From the UHGV virus genome UHGV-0017443: 26,279 bases of DNA. The stretch is one strand, 5' to 3'. Within the stretch, counting starts at the first letter, position 1, and every line of letters starts with the position of its first letter. Of this stretch, positions 2,848-11,397 are shown in pieces. The position numbers and the translations under genes were made by a program. The notes below the pieces were generated by a model that did not search any database, was not told the origin of the DNA, and saw nothing but the letters and a program-made list of their open reading frames with translations. This DNA comes from a virus.

Positions 2848-3664
2848 GTTAGCTGATTACAGGCCTCAACTGGAGGTCGTGGAGCATCGCGTGGCAGAAC
2901 TCGAAGATGGCTACACTCGGACTGCAAACACACTGTTAGAAGCCGCCATGCTTTCTGGGCTTACTGCACATCAGTTACTGATTGTTATGGCTGTGTGGCG
3001 CAAGACATACGGTTACAACAAAAAAATAGATTGGATCGGAAACGAACAGTTCGCTGAACTCACTGGCATGGCACCAACCAAATGCTCTACCGCCAAAAAC
3101 GAGCTTATCAGAATGGGAGTTCTCATTCAGGTGGGGCGTCAAGTTGGTATGAATACAAACATTTCCGAGTGGAAAACGAAAGTTAACGGATTCGGTAAAA
3201 CATTTACTAATTCGGTAAAACAAACCTTCACCAAATCGGTAAAAAGCAATTTACCGAATCAGTCAAACACAAAAGACAATATACAAAAGACAATAAATAC
3301 AAATACCCCCTTACCCCCTAACGGGGGCGGCGATGGGCAGGTTAAACCTGAACGTCGCAAGGCAGAACGAATCGACTACGAATCCTTCCTGAACGCCTAC
3401 AACACCGAAGTCGGTGACAGACTGCCACACGCTGTTGCGGTCAACGAGAAACGCAAACGCCGCCTGAAGAAAATCATCCCGCAACTGAAAACGCCAAACG
3501 TGGACGGTTTCAGAGCGTATGTCAGGGCGTTTGTACATCAGGCCAAGCCGTTTTACTTCGGAGACAACGACACTGGCTGGACGGCAGATTTTGATTACCT
3601 GCTGAGGGAAGATTCGTTAACGGGAGTACGGGAAGGGAAGTTTGCAGACAGGGGGATTGCATGA
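2834..3664 (+). CDS. Replication initiation protein, lambda O / P22 gp18 family
   Basis: 276 aa; N-terminal [15 protein letters not shown]...[15 protein letters not shown] resembles the lambda O N-terminal DNA-binding domain; iterons and an AT-rich tract sit inside the gene as in lambdoid origins. Confidence 0.85.
3187..3330. repeat. Replication origin: iterons (TCGGTAAAA, 3 direct and 1 inverted), AT-rich tract, short G/C palindrome
   Basis: TTCGGTAAAAC at 3191 and 3211, ATCGGTAAAAAG at 3236, inverted TTACCGAATC at 3251; then an A-rich stretch 3263..3305 and CCCCC-TAAC-GGGGG at 3313..3326. Confidence 0.7.
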
Positions 3665-5037
3665 AACAGGATATCGAAGCGAGCGTTATCGGTGGACTGC
3701 TGATTGGTGGATTAACACCAACTGCCAGTGACGTTCTGGCAACGCTTGAGCCGGAAGCGTTTTCAATTCCGCTCTACCGGAAAGCCTTCGAGGTTATCCG
3801 CAAGCAGGCGCGAAACAGAAACCTAATCGACGCGCTGATGGTTGCCGAGGCGTGCGGAGAGGAGCATTTTACGTCAATCCTGATGACCAGCAAAAACTGC
3901 CCGAGCGCCGCAAACCTGAAGGGATATGCCGGAATGGTCGCGGATAACTATCACCGCCGTCTGGTGCTGGAAATCATGGATGAAATGCGTGAACCAATTC
4001 AGAGCGGAACCATCGACGCATCGAGTCAGGCGATGGATGAACTTGTAAAGCGTCTTTCAGCCATCAGAAAGCCCCGTGACGAGGTAAAACCTGTACGGTT
4101 AGGGGAAATCATTACTGACTACACTGACACGCTTGACAGGCGTCTGAGGAACGGAGAAGAGTCCGATACCCTGAAGACCGGAATCGAAGAACTTGATGCC
4201 ATCACCGGAGGGATGAACGCGGAAGACCTGGTGATAATCGCTGCTCGTCCTGGTATGGGGAAAACCGAACTGGCGCTGAAGATTGCCGAAGGCGTTGCAA
4301 GCCGCGTTATTCCTGGTTCTGACGTCCGGCGCGGGGTATTGATTTTCTCAATGGAAATGAGCGCATTGCAGATTGCAGAGCGAAGCATTGCCAACGCCGG
4401 GAGGATGTCGGTTAGCGTACTGCGAAATCCTGCATCGATGGATGACGAAGGCTGGGCGCGTGTTGCTAACGGCATGAGTCAGCTTGCAGATTTGGATGTA
4501 TGGGTAGTCGATGCCTCGCGGTTATCGGTAGAAGAAATTCGCTCAATCGCAGAGCGGCACAAACAGGAAAATCCAAACCTGTCACTCATCATGGCGGATT
4601 ATCTTGGCCTGATTGAGAAGCCGAAAGCAGACCGCAACGACCTCGCAATTGCTCACATCTCCGGAAGCCTGAAGGCGATGGCGAAAGACCTGAAAACGCC
4701 AGTTATCTCCCTGAGTCAGCTTTCGCGCGATGTTGAGAAGCGACCAAACAAACGCCCGACAAACGCAGATTTGCGTGATTCTGGAAGCATTGAGCAGGAC
4801 GCAGACTCAATCATCATGCTCTATCGGGAAGCGGTATATGACGAGAACAGTAGCGCCGCGCCATTTGCTGAAATCATCGTGACGAAAAACCGTTTTGGCT
4901 CACTTGGTACGGTTTACCAGCGGTTCTGTAACGGACACTTTGTTGCATGTGACCAGGATGAAGCCAGACAGATTTGCACAGCATCAAATGCACCTGCTGC
5001 ACGTGGCAGACGATATGCACAAGGGGCGGACGTATGA
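3661..5037 (+). CDS. Replicative DNA helicase (DnaB family; P22 gene 12-like)
   Basis: 458 aa; Walker [16 protein letters not shown], DnaB-type N- and C-domains; start overlaps the O-like stop (ATGA). Confidence 0.9.
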
Positions 5038-6098: not shown

Positions 6099-6813
6099 GT
6101 TAATAAATGGCAATGCCATAAAAATGACAAGCATTGAAATCGCTGAGTTGGTGGGTAAGCGTCATGACAATGTGAAACGTACCATCGAAACGCTGGCTAA
6201 AAATGGTGTTATCCGGCTTCCTCAAATTGAGGTTTCCGAAAGAATCAATAACTTAGGGTTCAATGTTCAGTACGAGCATTACGTCTTCGAAGGCGAACAA
6301 GGTAAGCGAGATAGTATTGTTGTTGTTGCCCAGTTGTCGCCAGAGTTCACCGCTCGCCTTGTTGACCGCTGGCGAGAGCTTGAAGAAGCTGCGGTTAATA
6401 TCACCAAAACGCTACCAGAAGCGTTGCGCCTTGCTGCTGATCTTGCTGAGCAGAAAATGCAACTAGAAAACCAGCTCGCAATTGCCGCACCTAAAGTTGA
6501 GTTTGCCGAACGCGTTGGCGAGGCCAGCGGAATTTTGATTGGAAACTTTGCAAAGGTTGTCGGTATTGGTCCAAGCAAACTGTTTGCGTGGATGCGCGAT
6601 CACAAAATCCTTATTGCTTCAGGTTCCCGGCGCAATGTGCCAATGCAGGAATATATGGAGCGCGGCTATTTCACAGTGAAAGAAATAGCGGTCAATACAA
6701 ATCACGGAATACAGATATCGTTCACCACAAAAATCACCGGGCGTGGTCAACAGTGGCTGACCAGAAAGCTGCTCGATAACGGAATGCTGAAAGTAACAGG
6801 GGAGGCTGCTTAA
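6091..6813 (+). CDS. Antirepressor-like protein (N-terminal Rha-type domain, C-terminal ANT/KilAC-type domain)
   Basis: 240 aa; SIEIAELVGKRHDNVKRTIETL motif typical of the phage Rha regulatory family; the C-terminal half resembles phage antirepressor domains; inserted within the nin operon. Confidence 0.65.
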   Translation: MNELINGNAIKMTSIEIAELVGKRHDNVKRTIETLAKNGVIRLPQIEVSERINNLGFNVQYEHYVFEGEQGKRDSIVVVAQLSPEFTARLVDRWRELEEAAVNITKTLPEALRLAADLAEQKMQLENQLAIAAPKVEFAERVGEASGILIGNFAKVVGIGPSKLFAWMRDHKILIASGSRRNVPMQEYMERGYFTVKEIAVNTNHGIQISFTTKITGRGQQWLTRKLLDNGMLKVTGEAA

Positions 6814-7103
6814 TGGCTAACCTACGCAAAGAAGCGCGCGGCAGAGAATGCCAGGTACGTATTTACGGCGTATGCAATGGCAATCCTGAAACTACAGTTC
6901 TGGCACATTACCGGATGGCTGGAATTTGCGGAACGGGAATGAAGCCTGACGACCTGATCGGCGCATGGGCTTGTAGCGCGTGTCACGATGAAATCGACCG
7001 ACGCACCCATAATCTCGACAACAAAGACGCCAGACTTTACCACCTCGAAGGTGTGATCAGGACGCAGACGATACTGCTGAAGGAGGGGAAGATTAAGCCA
7101 TGA
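6813..7103 (+). CDS. YbcO-like protein (DUF1364-type, Cys/His-rich, putative nuclease)
   Basis: 96 aa, MANLRKEARGRECQVRIYGVCNGNPETTVLAHYR... with C/H cluster; the family sits next to rusA in lambdoid nin regions. Confidence 0.65.
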   Translation: MANLRKEARGRECQVRIYGVCNGNPETTVLAHYRMAGICGTGMKPDDLIGAWACSACHDEIDRRTHNLDNKDARLYHLEGVIRTQTILLKEGKIKP

Positions 7104-7462: not shown

Positions 7463-7647
7463 ACGCCACAATTCAAACGATACCAGAGCTTCTTATCCAG
7501 ACACGAGGCAATCAGACCGAAGTGGCAAGGATGCTTTCCTGCGCAAGAGGAACAGTGCTCAAGTACAACCGAGACAGCAAAGGCGAGCGTCACGTAATAG
7601 TTAACGGCGTCCTGATGGTCAAACAGGGCAAGAGGGGAAGACGATGA
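7459..7647 (+). CDS. ninH: NinH-like protein
   Basis: 62 aa; IPELLIQTRGNQTEVARMLSCARGTVLKYNRDSKGERHVIVNGVLMV resembles lambda NinH (GNQTEVARRLKCSRGTVRKY). Confidence 0.7.
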   Translation: MNATIQTIPELLIQTRGNQTEVARMLSCARGTVLKYNRDSKGERHVIVNGVLMVKQGKRGRR

Positions 7648-8267
7648 GACTCGAAAGCGTAGCTAAATTTCATTCGCCAAAAAGCCCGATGATGAGCGAC
7701 TCACCACGGGCCACGGCTTCTGACTCTCTTTCCGGTACTGATGTGATGGCTGCTATGGGGATGGCACAATCACAGGCCGGATTCGGAATGGCTGCATTCT
7801 GTGGTAAGCACGAACTCAGCCAGAACGACAAACAAAAGGCTATCAACTATCTGATGCAATTTGCACACAAGGTATCGGGGAAATACCGTGGTGTGGCAAA
7901 GCTTGAAGGAAATACTAAGGCAAAGGTACTGCAAGTGCTCGCAACATTCGCTTATGCGGATTATTGCCGTAGTGCCGCGACGCCGGGCGCAAGATGCAGA
8001 GATTGTCACGGTACAGGCCGTGCGGTTGATATAGCCAAAACGGAGCAGTGGGGGAGAGTTGTTGAGAAAGAGTGCGGAAGATGCAAAGGCGTCGGCTATT
8101 CCAGGATGCCAGCAAGCGCCGCATATCGCGCTGTAACGATGCTAATCCCAAACCTTACCCAACCCACCTGGTCACGCACTGTTAAGCCGCTGTATGACGC
8201 TCTGGTGGTGCAATGCCACAAGGAAGAGTCAATCGCAGACAACATTTTGAATGCGGTCACACGTTAG
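7644..8267 (+). CDS. Q: Late-gene antiterminator Q (lambda-type)
   Basis: 207 aa beginning MRLESVAKFHSPKSPMMSDSPRATASDSLSG..., essentially the lambda Q sequence as I recall it, with its zinc-binding Cys cluster. Confidence 0.92.
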   Translation: MRLESVAKFHSPKSPMMSDSPRATASDSLSGTDVMAAMGMAQSQAGFGMAAFCGKHELSQNDKQKAINYLMQFAHKVSGKYRGVAKLEGNTKAKVLQVLATFAYADYCRSAATPGARCRDCHGTGRAVDIAKTEQWGRVVEKECGRCKGVGYSRMPASAAYRAVTMLIPNLTQPTWSRTVKPLYDALVVQCHKEESIADNILNAVTR

Positions 8268-8309
8268 CAGCATGATTGCCACGGATGGCAACATATTAAC
8301 GGCATGATA

Positions 8310-8352
8310 TTGACTTTTTGAATAAAGTTGGGTAAATTTGACCCAAGAATGG
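8310..8352 (+). promoter_or_regulatory. pR' late promoter with qut-type elements (-35 TTGACT, 17 bp, -10 TAAATT, promoter-proximal -10-like AAGAAT)
   Basis: TTGACTttttgaataaagttgggTAAATTtgacccAAGAATgg matches lambda pR' through about +1; the lambda pause-inducing element AACGAT is AAGAAT here, after which the sequence diverges. Confidence 0.7.
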
Positions 8353-9030
8353 CAGATTTATATCCGTTCACATTCTTTCAGTTTTTACCCACCTCATCTT
8401 TAAGTTCTAAGCGCACTGACATGCGCATCATAAACTCGAGAGCACATAGGAATAGAGCCTGAGAAATATCGCCTTTGGCGACTTCTCTCGTGGTGATATT
8501 TCTATGTCAGCAGGCTCTAATATCTATGTGGTTCGCCTATGTTAAAACGTGAAGATGCATTGAGACTTTTTAATTACAATCCAGATACTGGAATTCTTAC
8601 ATGGAAGAATCCACCTCGGTCTTCTAGATTTATCTATGGCGCTGTTGTTGGCTATAAAACAAATGGATATCTGCAGGTAAAACTTTATGGAATGCGGCTA
8701 TATGTCCATAGAATTGCATGGCTGATGGTTTACAATGATTGGCCAGCCGATGTGATTGACCATATTAATGGTGATAGATCTGATAACCGGATAGCCAATC
8801 TTCGTGTTGTTACTAACACTCAAAACTCATGGAACAGCAAGATGAGGAAAAACAATTCATCTGGTGTGAAGGGGGTGACTTTTAATTCTGCTGCAAACAA
8901 GTGGGTTGGAAGAATTAGGGTCAATGGTAAAAGGATTCATGTAGGGTGTTTTGACGATATCGAGGAGGCGAGAAAGGCAATGGAAAATGCCAGGATAAAA
9001 TATCATGGTGAATTCTCCAGTATGGGATAG
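8353..9030 (+). mobile_element. About 0.68-kb insertion in the pR' leader carrying a free-standing HNH endonuclease gene
   Basis: Lambda-like sequence stops just after the promoter and resumes at GATGGGTTAATTCGCTCG (9031); both junctions carry an A-rich ATGG motif (AAGAATGG / GATAGATGG). Confidence 0.6.
8539..9030 (+). CDS. HNH homing endonuclease (HNH_3-type catalytic motif plus AP2-like DNA-binding domain)
   Basis: 163 aa; IDHINGDRSDNRIANLRVVTNTQN is an HNH motif; C-terminal GVKGVTFNSAANKWVGRIRVNGKRIHVGCFDDIEEARKAM resembles AP2 domains of phage homing endonucleases; AT-rich relative to its flanks. Confidence 0.8.
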   Translation: MLKREDALRLFNYNPDTGILTWKNPPRSSRFIYGAVVGYKTNGYLQVKLYGMRLYVHRIAWLMVYNDWPADVIDHINGDRSDNRIANLRVVTNTQNSWNSKMRKNNSSGVKGVTFNSAANKWVGRIRVNGKRIHVGCFDDIEEARKAMENARIKYHGEFSSMG

Positions 9031-9163
9031 ATGGGTTAATTCGCTCGTTGTGGTAGTGAGATAAAAAGAGGCGGCGCTTACTACCGATTCCGCCTAGTTG
9101 GTCACTTCGACGTATCGTCTGGAACTCCAACCATCGCAGGCTGAGAGGTCTGCAAAAATGCAA

Positions 9164-9222
9164 TCCCGAAACAGTTCGCAGGTAATAGTTAGAGCCTGCA
9201 CAACGGTTTCGGGATTTTTTAT
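9164..9222 (+). terminator. tR' (6S RNA) terminator of the late leader
   Basis: TCCCGAAAC...GTTTCGGGA stem followed by TTTTTTAT; the segment 9031..9222 matches the lambda 6S/tR' region as I recall it. Confidence 0.7.
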
Positions 9223-9224
9223 TT

Positions 9225-9299
9225 GGGTCAGTCGTATAAAGGTCATTACGGAAGGCTGTTAACCTTCTTATCGTGGTTCGAGTCCACGCTGTCCCGCCA
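9225..9299 (+). tRNA. tRNA-like gene, anticodon GTT (Asn), with one acceptor-stem mismatch
   Basis: Hand-folded cloverleaf: acceptor GGGTCAG/CTGTCCC (T-T mismatch at 4:69), D-arm with GG, anticodon stem GAAGG/CCTTC with loop CTGTTAA, T-arm CGTGG-TTCGAGT-CCACG, discriminator G, encoded CCA. Confidence 0.5.
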
Positions 9300-9304
9300 A
9301 ACAT

Positions 9305-9380
9305 GCTGGTTTAGCTCCAATGGTGGAGCAGTCGCCTTGTAAGCGAATGGGTAGCGGTTCAAGTCCGTTAACCAGCACCA
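9305..9380 (+). tRNA. tRNA gene, anticodon TGT (Thr)
   Basis: Perfect 7-bp acceptor stem GCTGGTT/AACCAGC, D-stem GCTC/GAGC, anticodon loop CTTGTAA, T-arm AGCGG-TTCAAGT-CCGTT, discriminator A, encoded CCA. Confidence 0.7.
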
Positions 9381-9622
9381 TAACTGAGCCGTAGCCACTG
9401 GCTATCCTGAATTCATCAGTGATAGTTACGATGCGGCCTTCTACACATGACCTTCGTGAAAGCGGGTGGCAAGAGGCTGCGCTAACAACCTCATGCCGTT
9501 TTGCCCGTGCATATCGGTCACGAACAAATCTGATTACTAAACACAGTAGCCTGGATTTGTTCTATCAGTAATCGACCTTATTCCTAATTAAATAGAGCAA
9601 ATCCCCTTATTGGGGGTAAGAC

Positions 9623-9946
9623 ATGAAGATGCCAGAAAAACATGACCTGTTAGCCGCCATTCTCGCGGCAAAGGAACAAGGCATCGGGGCAATCCTTGCG
9701 TTTGCAATGGCGTACCTTCGCGGCAGATATAATGGCGGTGCGTTTACAAAAACAGTAATCGACGCAACGATGTGCGCCATTATCGCCTGGTTCATTCGTG
9801 ACCTTCTCGACTTCGCCGGACTAAGTAGCAATCTCGCTTATATAACGAGCGTGTTTATCGGCTACATCGGCACTGACTCGATTGGTTCGCTTATCAAACG
9901 CTTCGCTGCTAAAAAAGCCGGAGTAGAAGATGGTGGAAATCAATAA
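9623..9946 (+). CDS. S: Holin S (class I, lambda-type, dual-start MKM motif)
   Basis: 107 aa, [41 protein letters not shown]..., matches lambda S as I recall it. Confidence 0.95.
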
Positions 9947-11109: not shown

Positions 11110-11397
11110 GTCATTACAAAGCCCATCTACGGGTGGGCTTGATAATGAAACCGGAGTTAATTTCTGGTCACTAATTAACGGCAGTACCGCGAAACAACCC
11201 AAGCCAGTAAGTGGGGAAATAACACTGGCAGCCACTGAAAGATGAACCTCCTGCCTTATGGCAAAAAAGATTCTTTGTGGTGGCGGACTGATGGAAAGAC
11301 ATCGGTTAGAATCAAGCAGTGGCTAGGGTAGCTCCCGAAAAGCGTAATCGTCACCGCCTGCCACTGATTCAATGACGAACAACTAGACGAGGTTGTT

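Follow-up and report, generated by a model that had tools for sequence, protein, structure and literature searches.

An HNH–AP2 endonuclease gene behind a predicted pseudoknotted leader RNA, between the late promoter and the 6S terminator of a lambdoid prophage

The virus genome UHGV-0017443 (26,279 nt; this whole stretch of DNA is called the window below, and the features described between 7644 and 9380 are on the + strand) is part of a P22-like lambdoid prophage and spans its early-right and late regions; in it, about 0.68 kb (8353–9030) with a free-standing HNH–AP2 endonuclease gene separates the late promoter pR' from the 6S leader and its terminator tR'. The nin-region genes and a lambda-type Q gene come first, the S/R/Rz lysis genes start at 9623, and past them lie the terminase, a 721-aa open reading frame (ORF) of portal size and ORFs of scaffold and coat size, all of them long open frames. 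The Q gene (7644–8267) encodes a late antiterminator of the lambda type (207 aa; Pfam Antiterm, 192 bits). The promoter, found by a consensus scan at 8310–8338, consists of a −35 hexamer TTGACT, a 17-nt spacer with the Q-binding element and a −10 hexamer TAAATT; phage HK446, in its annotated PR', and phage Kapi1 have exactly the same promoter sequence. On the far side of the insert, alignment and folding place a lambda-type 6S leader with tR' at 9031–9222, which takes up the lambda sequence from +4/+9 onward and now forms the 3' untranslated region of the endonuclease message; this region is 98% identical to HK446 and Kapi1 and 97.9% identical to lambda. The terminator tR' is intact (hairpin 9163–9215, U run 9215–9220, −28.9 kcal/mol, z −6.1) and differs from that of lambda by a single loop base.

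The original prediction, made from the letters of the window alone, held that the gene had been inserted between a lambda-like pR' and a lambda-like 6S/tR' region, and alignment with HK446, Kapi1 and lambda bears this out: the ∼0.68 kb lies between +8 of pR' and +4 of the 6S/tR' leader, and by local BLAST window positions 8200–8352 plus 9030–9450 make up contiguous HK446/Kapi1 sequence (97–98% identity), so that these two phages provide the uninterrupted alleles, and the gene is absent from the closest relatives. The empty allele reads TAAATTTGACCCAACGATGG followed directly by GTTAATTCG (the right side is also given as GTTAATTCGCTCG); the window allele reads GACCCAAGAATGG, then the insert of about 678 nt that begins with CAGATTT and ends with GGGATAGATGG, and then GTTAATTCG. 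The ATGG predicted at both ends is there, since GATGG of the empty allele is represented on both flanks, as AATGG (8348–8352) on the left and as GATGG (9030–9034) on the right, so that the exact junction could lie anywhere from +2 to +8 of the transcript (8347–8352 on the left). A junction repeat of 4–5 nt is weak evidence alone and too short to prove a mechanism. The stop codon of the endonuclease gene also stands where it had been placed: TAG (9028–9030) abuts the resumed lambda homology and overlaps its first base.

The endonuclease ORF (8539–9030, 163 aa) matches the Pfam family HNH_3 over residues 55–97 (62.6 bits against a cut-off of 24.8), the AP2 family marginally (33.6 bits against a cut-off of 33.3) and PHROG 99 ‘HNH endonuclease’ (E 7e-76). 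In the homing endonuclease I-HmuI, an Asp–His pair has catalytic and metal-binding roles, one Asn is structural and another binds metal. Residues D74, H75, N87 and N96 of the window protein align with the same-numbered residues of I-HmuI (PDB 1U3E), and in an alignment of 41 homologues D74, H75 and N87 are invariant while N96 is conserved in at least 90%, so the predicted enzyme is not an HNH protein that has lost its catalytic residues. With regard to the ββα-metal fold, the AlphaFold2 model (pLDDT 94.3) has strands at 72–75 and 88–91 followed by a helix at 93–98; its Foldseek matches to I-PpoI are weak (E 0.26), and its C-terminal domain superposes on the GCC-box AP2 domain of AtERF1 (1gcc; root-mean-square deviation 1.3 Å over 51 residues, probability 1.00) and also on TEM1 and WRI1. 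Against an 86%-identical relative (locus L041 of our collection), the ratio of nonsynonymous to synonymous divergence (dN/dS) is 0.08 at a dS of 0.91; by this estimate the ORF is under strong purifying selection. Judged by its sequence, the protein is typical of the HNH–AP2 homing endonuclease kind, and the free-standing gene of that kind named in the original prediction is confirmed by Pfam and alignment. The possibility that the gene belongs to a group I intron was rejected: no Rfam family, intron or other, matches at E ≤ 10 over 8300–9240, and the downstream flank is an ordinary 6S leader that is present without the ORF in lambda. A small ORF at 8328–8462 was not retained as a gene, since it matches no family and shares sequence with the promoter.

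The 186 nt of the insert ahead of the ORF begin with a variable and apparently unstructured part (8353–8408; fold z-score −0.63, no terminator, 71% identity to L041), which is followed by a predicted doubly pseudoknotted leader RNA of about 120 nt (8409–8531), delimited by covariation, folding and conservation. The 130 nt ahead of the start codon are 94.6% conserved in L041, as compared with 71–84% for the flanks, and the RNA is recognisable upstream of the HNH gene in all relatives whose proteins are 62–86% identical. Its predicted elements are a hairpin H1 (8411–8426); a first pseudoknot, PK1, in which the H1 loop (8416–8421) pairs with a bulge between the stems P2 and P1 (8505–8510); a second pseudoknot, PK2, in which the strand between H1 and P1 (8437–8442) pairs with the P2 loop (8485–8490); and a long coaxial stem made of P1ext/P1 (8445–8461 with 8511–8528) and, stacked on P1, P2 (8462–8473 with 8492–8503). 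The loop UGGCGAC (8476–8482) is nearly invariant. The first base of a Shine–Dalgarno-like GUGG (8528–8531) belongs to the last P1ext pair, and more of this element is paired in the minimum free energy (MFE) fold; the MFE of the window copy is −51.2 kcal/mol (z −5.1).

Pattern scans collected 29 distinct copies of this motif, and a covariance model built from them then found diverged copies. In the first alignment 98.3% of the cells are paired, versus 31–51% when the partners are slid. PK1 occurs in five sequence classes (CUGACG, CUGACA, UCUCAC, UCGCA and UUCACC), each with its exact complement, PK2 in at least seven, every one of them compensated, and RNAalifold independently predicts H1, P1 and P2 with 12 pairs that show a compensatory change. 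G–U pairs are abundant on the + strand alone (e.g. U–G in 20 of the 29 copies at one H1 pair), and the covariance model gives the reverse strand 15 bits as compared with 135; both point to an RNA made from the + strand. A conserved AGG/UGG 9–10 nt upstream of the AUG, presumed to be the Shine–Dalgarno element, is paired by the closing helix in the model, and the leader RNA probably limits translation of the nuclease. No Rfam 15 family matches at E ≤ 10 over the motif in the window or over a copy of the type found next to Rha genes, and identification of the leader as a ribozyme, a riboswitch, c4 or IsrK was dropped on the same grounds. No second copy of the motif, as a possible target, was found in the window with filters off. 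The literature consulted for this arrangement and RNA motif gave general background only, the large phage-RNA catalogues (PMC10690425, PMC8040213) not having been searched for the motif.

Among sequenced phages the complete insert was not found. A megablast search of window positions 8200–9300 against 50,697 phage records matched 169 records, with at most 39% of the query covered by any of them; the best matches (phiv205-1, mEp506, HK446 and Kapi1) consist of two pieces flanking the insert, and the number of phage isolates with the complete insert is 0 out of 50,697. The whole insert is found in 16 out of 5426 complete E. coli genomes, at 98.6–99.3% identity and with identical junctions throughout. 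The uninterrupted pR'–6S leader is found in 397 E. coli genomes; about 4% of comparable leaders are therefore occupied, and the module is a minority allele in E. coli. About 15 further occupied prophage contigs come from IMG/VR. The neighbourhoods of the occupied loci are mosaic (the tRNA pair described below is present or absent, and lysis and nin genes differ), with the block of Q, pR', module and 6S kept together; Q identity among all module-bearing loci is 95.5–98.7%.

Some alleles have decayed. A 320-bp deletion inside the ORF (8612–8931) is shared by L008, L013, L039 and L040, and in L034 and L035 a tblastn match shorter by 1 nt is read as a frameshift. A form of the leader without the HNH gene results from a 737-bp deletion between TAGAGCCTG repeats (8453–8461 and 9190–9198), seen in L001, L009 and E. 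coli RMDEC465; the RNA motif is thereby cut short and tR' loses its 5' half, with no terminator hairpin predicted in what is left. HNH-less derivatives assigned to this deletion are L001 (3010–3150), L009 and L002 (2890–3075), and the L001-type deletion alleles comprise H57–H59 in E. coli and L009 in IMG/VR. An independent ‘variant-B’ late leader, suggested by the left 110 bp of the insert in three E. coli genomes that lack the HNH gene, was considered and ruled out, as outside the L001-type deletion alleles this sequence is always accompanied by the HNH gene or a remnant of it. L002 carries an extra 46-nt insertion inside the leader with a terminator-like hairpin (CCCGCCCTGTCGGGCGAGGG).

More distant relatives place the module behind late promoters of other kinds. 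A protein search found relatives at 86, 74, 66 and 62% identity, each about 250 bp downstream of a Q gene, with lysis genes or a tRNA following wherever the contig reaches that far. The Q proteins are of a diverged lambda type (207-type), 254 aa, 273 aa and 276 aa (the last in Xenorhabdus bovienii); in all, the relatives stand behind at least four promoter types and three Q-length types. Homology breaks at the −10/+1 boundary: in an ES18-type example, the homology to ES18 ends right past the −10 hexamer. The initial transcribed regions of the module loci are alike (nnnAAT-G) and unlike those of their Q-type relatives, and a TCCGTTCA block within the initial transcribed leader is common to the window and L043; because these regions resemble one another, the module appears to bring its own post-promoter leader. 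L041 has diverged from the window evenly along its length (nucleotide identity 84% for Q, 83.5% for the promoter, 83% for HNH and 79.5% for the 6S-like tail), which indicates a long vertical co-residence of the block. HNH relatives at 40–44% identity occupy other late-operon sites, some flanked by head and tail genes and some by terminase and portal, and such scattered positions are typical of free-standing homing endonuclease genes. Read from these contexts, the module is an old exchangeable one that has been joined to several Q and promoter types and occasionally lost or degraded, and no recent one-off insertion. Of the original picture of an insertion into a lambda-type leader, the minority status of the allele stands, but the event was not a simple recent one, given the relatives behind four promoter sequences and the co-divergence of L041; the alternative named alongside it, an ancestral and widespread organisation of the group, is borne out in part, the arrangement being recurrent and old, though in the minority (16 versus 397).

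The original prediction also asked whether Q can still be loaded with the leader so displaced. The promoter-proximal part of the Q-utilization (qut) site (8339–8352), aligned with lambda, HK446, Kapi1 and P22, holds a −35-like TTGACC, a transcription start placed by inference at A8345 and a pause hexamer AAGAAT followed by GG; the roles assigned to these elements follow established knowledge of lambda pR'. The −10-like pause hexamer differs from that of lambda (AACGAT) but keeps the A and the T at positions 2 and 6, and promoter, spacer and TTGACC are all the same as in HK446 and Kapi1; the window is predicted to have a lambda-type qut site with its elements all in place. Q loading is probably intact in the module-bearing prophage, because the late genes are intact and the Q-binding element, the −35-like TTGACC and the −10-like hexamer (with A2 and T6) have all been kept; the doubt is thus largely answered by the presence of the qut elements and by a promoter that is that of viable phages (HK446, Kapi1).

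In lysogens, transcription from pR' is constitutive and stops at tR', and lambda lysogens are rich in 6S RNA (PMC7547250); the region past pR' tolerates extra DNA (PMC4104026). No terminator-like site was found on the + strand within 8353–9030, and an internal promoter for the nuclease was rejected, as the sole + strand promoter-like site lies within the ORF and the site counts are at chance level. Because the module has neither a promoter nor a terminator of its own, a constitutive pR'-to-tR' RNA of about 0.87 kb would carry the nuclease ORF in the lysogen, replacing the 0.19-kb 6S RNA, and after induction the nuclease would be the first gene read by the Q-modified polymerase. Expression in the lysogen, as first predicted, would thus hold for transcription, with no terminator between the constitutive pR' and the ORF, but the leader is predicted to pair the presumed ribosome-binding site (RBS), so that the gene is probably transcribed but throttled. 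Low translation by default might be what makes a nuclease gene tolerable in a constitutive transcript, and the product would most likely serve as a free-standing homing or competition nuclease that cuts the DNA of related phages without the module. With moderate confidence, we regard the locus as a self-contained late-leader module that is transcribed with the pR' leader, throttled in translation, codes for a homing or competition nuclease and has an old, exchangeable history.

Several points weigh against this proposal. The transcribed sequence beyond +2 is unlike that of lambda, and the position or efficiency of the sigma-dependent pause could differ. None of the 50,697 sequenced phage isolates has the module, so viability is read solely from intact prophage ORFs. 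Occlusion of the Shine–Dalgarno element is read from a predicted structure only, and the element in E. coli (GUGG) is weak. Active homing is not demonstrated by the even divergence of the L041 cassette and its flanks, nor by the comparison across the 16 mosaics, in which the cassette is 98.5–99.6% identical and Q 95.5–98.7%.

The same data bear on a different history, in which an active gene recently invaded the pR' leader at ATGG and now spreads through E. coli prophages, cutting the empty site and being copied into it. Presence and absence at one exact site within flanks of 97–98% identity, the rarity of the allele, a cassette slightly more uniform than its flanks in many mosaic backgrounds and the intact catalytic residues all fit such recent homing. 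The module, however, stands together with its own initial transcribed region behind unrelated late promoters that share no common target sequence, the whole block has co-diverged in L041, the occupied alleles show no visible co-conversion tract on the 6S side, and the junction repeat measures just 4–5 nt; we consider recent homing unlikely, though it deserves some weight.

It is also possible, if rather doubtful, that the nuclease has been domesticated, either for exclusion of superinfecting relatives through low expression in the lysogen or for a role in DNA metabolism or packaging. Purifying selection on the gene is strong and long-lasting, its position behind Q is stable across genera (including Xenorhabdus), and it lies within a transcript made in lysogens. 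But about 96% of comparable leaders do without the gene, degraded copies exist, and defence-system models gave no match (PADLOC not run). The known packaging-associated HNH proteins (HK97 gp74 type) adjoin terminase and lack AP2, whereas the window gene precedes the lysis genes.

The leader RNA is not confined to the nuclease. Its motif is present in 146 phage records and 917 out of 5426 E. coli genomes (∼17%), where the genes following it code for Rha, KilA-N, antirepressor, GIY-YIG or other HNH proteins. In HK620 (hkbK), Sf101 and many Stx2a phages a diverged version is flanked by Rz on one side and by a gene for Rha, KilA-N or a GIY-YIG nuclease on the other. Copies of this kind between Rz and a variable ORF were located at 4667–4808 of L001, 1498–1635 of L085 (HK620), 1496–1637 of L086 (a Stx2a phage) and 2001–2148 of L098, and in L088, L089 and L090; PK1, PK2, P1 and P2 of the Rz-adjacent copies are all compensated relative to the window copy. 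In Xenorhabdus prophages the motif stands ahead of P22_AR_N antirepressor, Rha or other HNH ORFs. All 22 matches to the conserved core in the genome collection fall in Xenorhabdus species, with at most three copies per genome (L048, L051–L079), and the complete Xenorhabdus copies that were examined are usually directly past an intrinsic terminator. Phage Dewey (L091, 834–1536) has an HNH–AP2 gene with its own copy of the motif (834–971), diverged and fully compensated; this cassette has taken the place of the 5' part of an HK620-type motif already resident there, whose last 36 nt remain before the KilA-N gene. The arrangement suggests that nuclease cassettes recombine within the motif, and we speculate that the motif itself is a recombination or homing site. 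Judged by gene order, the slot that follows the motif is interchangeable and holds nucleases and DNA-binding regulators. The motif was also considered as a universal companion of HNH–AP2 genes, and this was rejected, the motif being absent upstream of the relatives at 40–44% identity.

These contexts allow a broader, rather improbable interpretation: the leader would represent a new class of cis-regulatory RNAs that gate the translation of nuclease, antirepressor and Rha-type accessory genes in the late operons of lambdoid phages, responding for instance to a factor or to the kinetics of the Q-modified polymerase, and a trickle of HNH–AP2 nuclease from the constitutive pR' leader would bring about exclusion as well as homing by cutting unoccupied late leaders or motif DNA of superinfecting relatives. 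It is very improbable that the ORF is inert cargo or a decaying remnant and that the upstream sequence acts as DNA (a protein-binding or recombination site): deleted and frameshifted alleles exist, and the Dewey cassette, which ends inside a resident motif, would fit motif DNA as a nuclease or recombination target, but the dN/dS of 0.08 and the invariant catalytic residues argue against decay, the + strand G–U pairs would become C–A mismatches in the reverse strand, which scores 15 bits versus 135, and the compensatory changes keep pairing rather than sequence.

A few observations concern the surroundings of the module. A tRNA-Asn(GTT) and a tRNA-Thr(TGT) (9225–9380; ARAGORN, Rfam) lie directly past tR' and outside the module; the pair is also present in Kapi1, and many module-bearing loci carry lambda-like sequence there instead. 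In L036, an occupied contig from IMG/VR, 55 nt of the tR' region (3623–3677) have a further match to the window, reversed and 100% identical; the 6S part of this contig is merely 91.6% identical, and it may have a rearranged terminator. Between Rz and terminase, positions 11316–11378 of the window match the Rfam family int-alpA sRNA (37.8 bits, gathering score 35.8). A 96-aa DUF1364 ORF in the nin region (6813–7103), whose Kapi1 homologue is annotated as ‘HNH endonuclease’, may encode a second small HNH-like protein of the prophage.

If the locus is the self-contained late-leader module that we favour, it puts a protein-coding nuclease inside the always-transcribed pR'–tR' leader, long held to be a by-product and recently shown to yield a regulatory small RNA (sRNA) in Stx phages. 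Such loci offer a natural test of how far the sequence beyond the sigma-dependent pause may be exchanged before Q antitermination is lost. A homing-type lineage here keeps a functional address across Q specificities, which is unusual for elements usually defined by their sequence target. The covarying RNA leader without an Rfam family is the most valuable by-product of this analysis, and its mechanism could explain the silencing of toxic prophage genes.

HNH–AP2 homing endonucleases (Magnani et al. 2004, via PMC10448857; among them the ‘IPA-HNH’ genes of ICP1 phages) are the closest known kind. Like them and like I-HmuI of SPO1 (1U3E), the window protein has an N-terminal HNH_3 His-Me finger, with D-H...N...N in the I-HmuI register, and a C-terminal AP2 fold; it is likewise free-standing in a phage and has relatives scattered over intergenic sites of late operons. 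Unlike them, the subclade of the window stays at one functional position, just past the late promoter, with different Q types in front of it, and has a structured RNA leader; unlike I-HmuI, the gene is not intron-encoded, and cleavage and homing are here predictions.

The interval from pR' to S of lambdoid phages holds other cargo as well, such as stx, tRNAs and anti-sRNAs (Juhala et al. 2000, via PMC4104026), and the module shares with these morons and cargo genes that extra DNA is tolerated downstream of a Q-antiterminated late promoter. It differs from the cargo compared here (stx, and the tRNA pair of the window, which is downstream of tR') in lying within the short constitutive leader, ahead of tR', and from classical morons, which have their own promoter and terminator, in having neither, so that it falls outside the definition of a moron. 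With lambda 6S and StxS (PMC7547250) it has in common the promoter, the terminator and constitutive transcription in the lysogen, and the 6S sequence is kept from +4; the leader, however, is about 0.87 kb instead of about 0.19 kb and protein-coding, and an sRNA-like role of 6S would depend on processing.

For the leader RNA, the nearest analogies are controls of other prophage and phage genes. Free-standing and intron homing endonuclease genes of T4 have RBS-occluding hairpins, and the c4 RNA of P1 and the IsrK leader RNA of Gifsy-1 control antirepressors. In the module, too, a structured RNA directly upstream of a nuclease or antirepressor ORF is predicted to pair the RBS, and its loops vary with compensating partners; in contrast to c4 and IsrK, its complementary segments are predicted to form two intramolecular pseudoknots and not an antisense RNA with an RBS target, and it matches neither in sequence nor by model. 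What is new relative to all these systems is that the gene lies upstream of tR', persists with Q genes of different types before it and comes with a dedicated leader predicted to be pseudoknotted.

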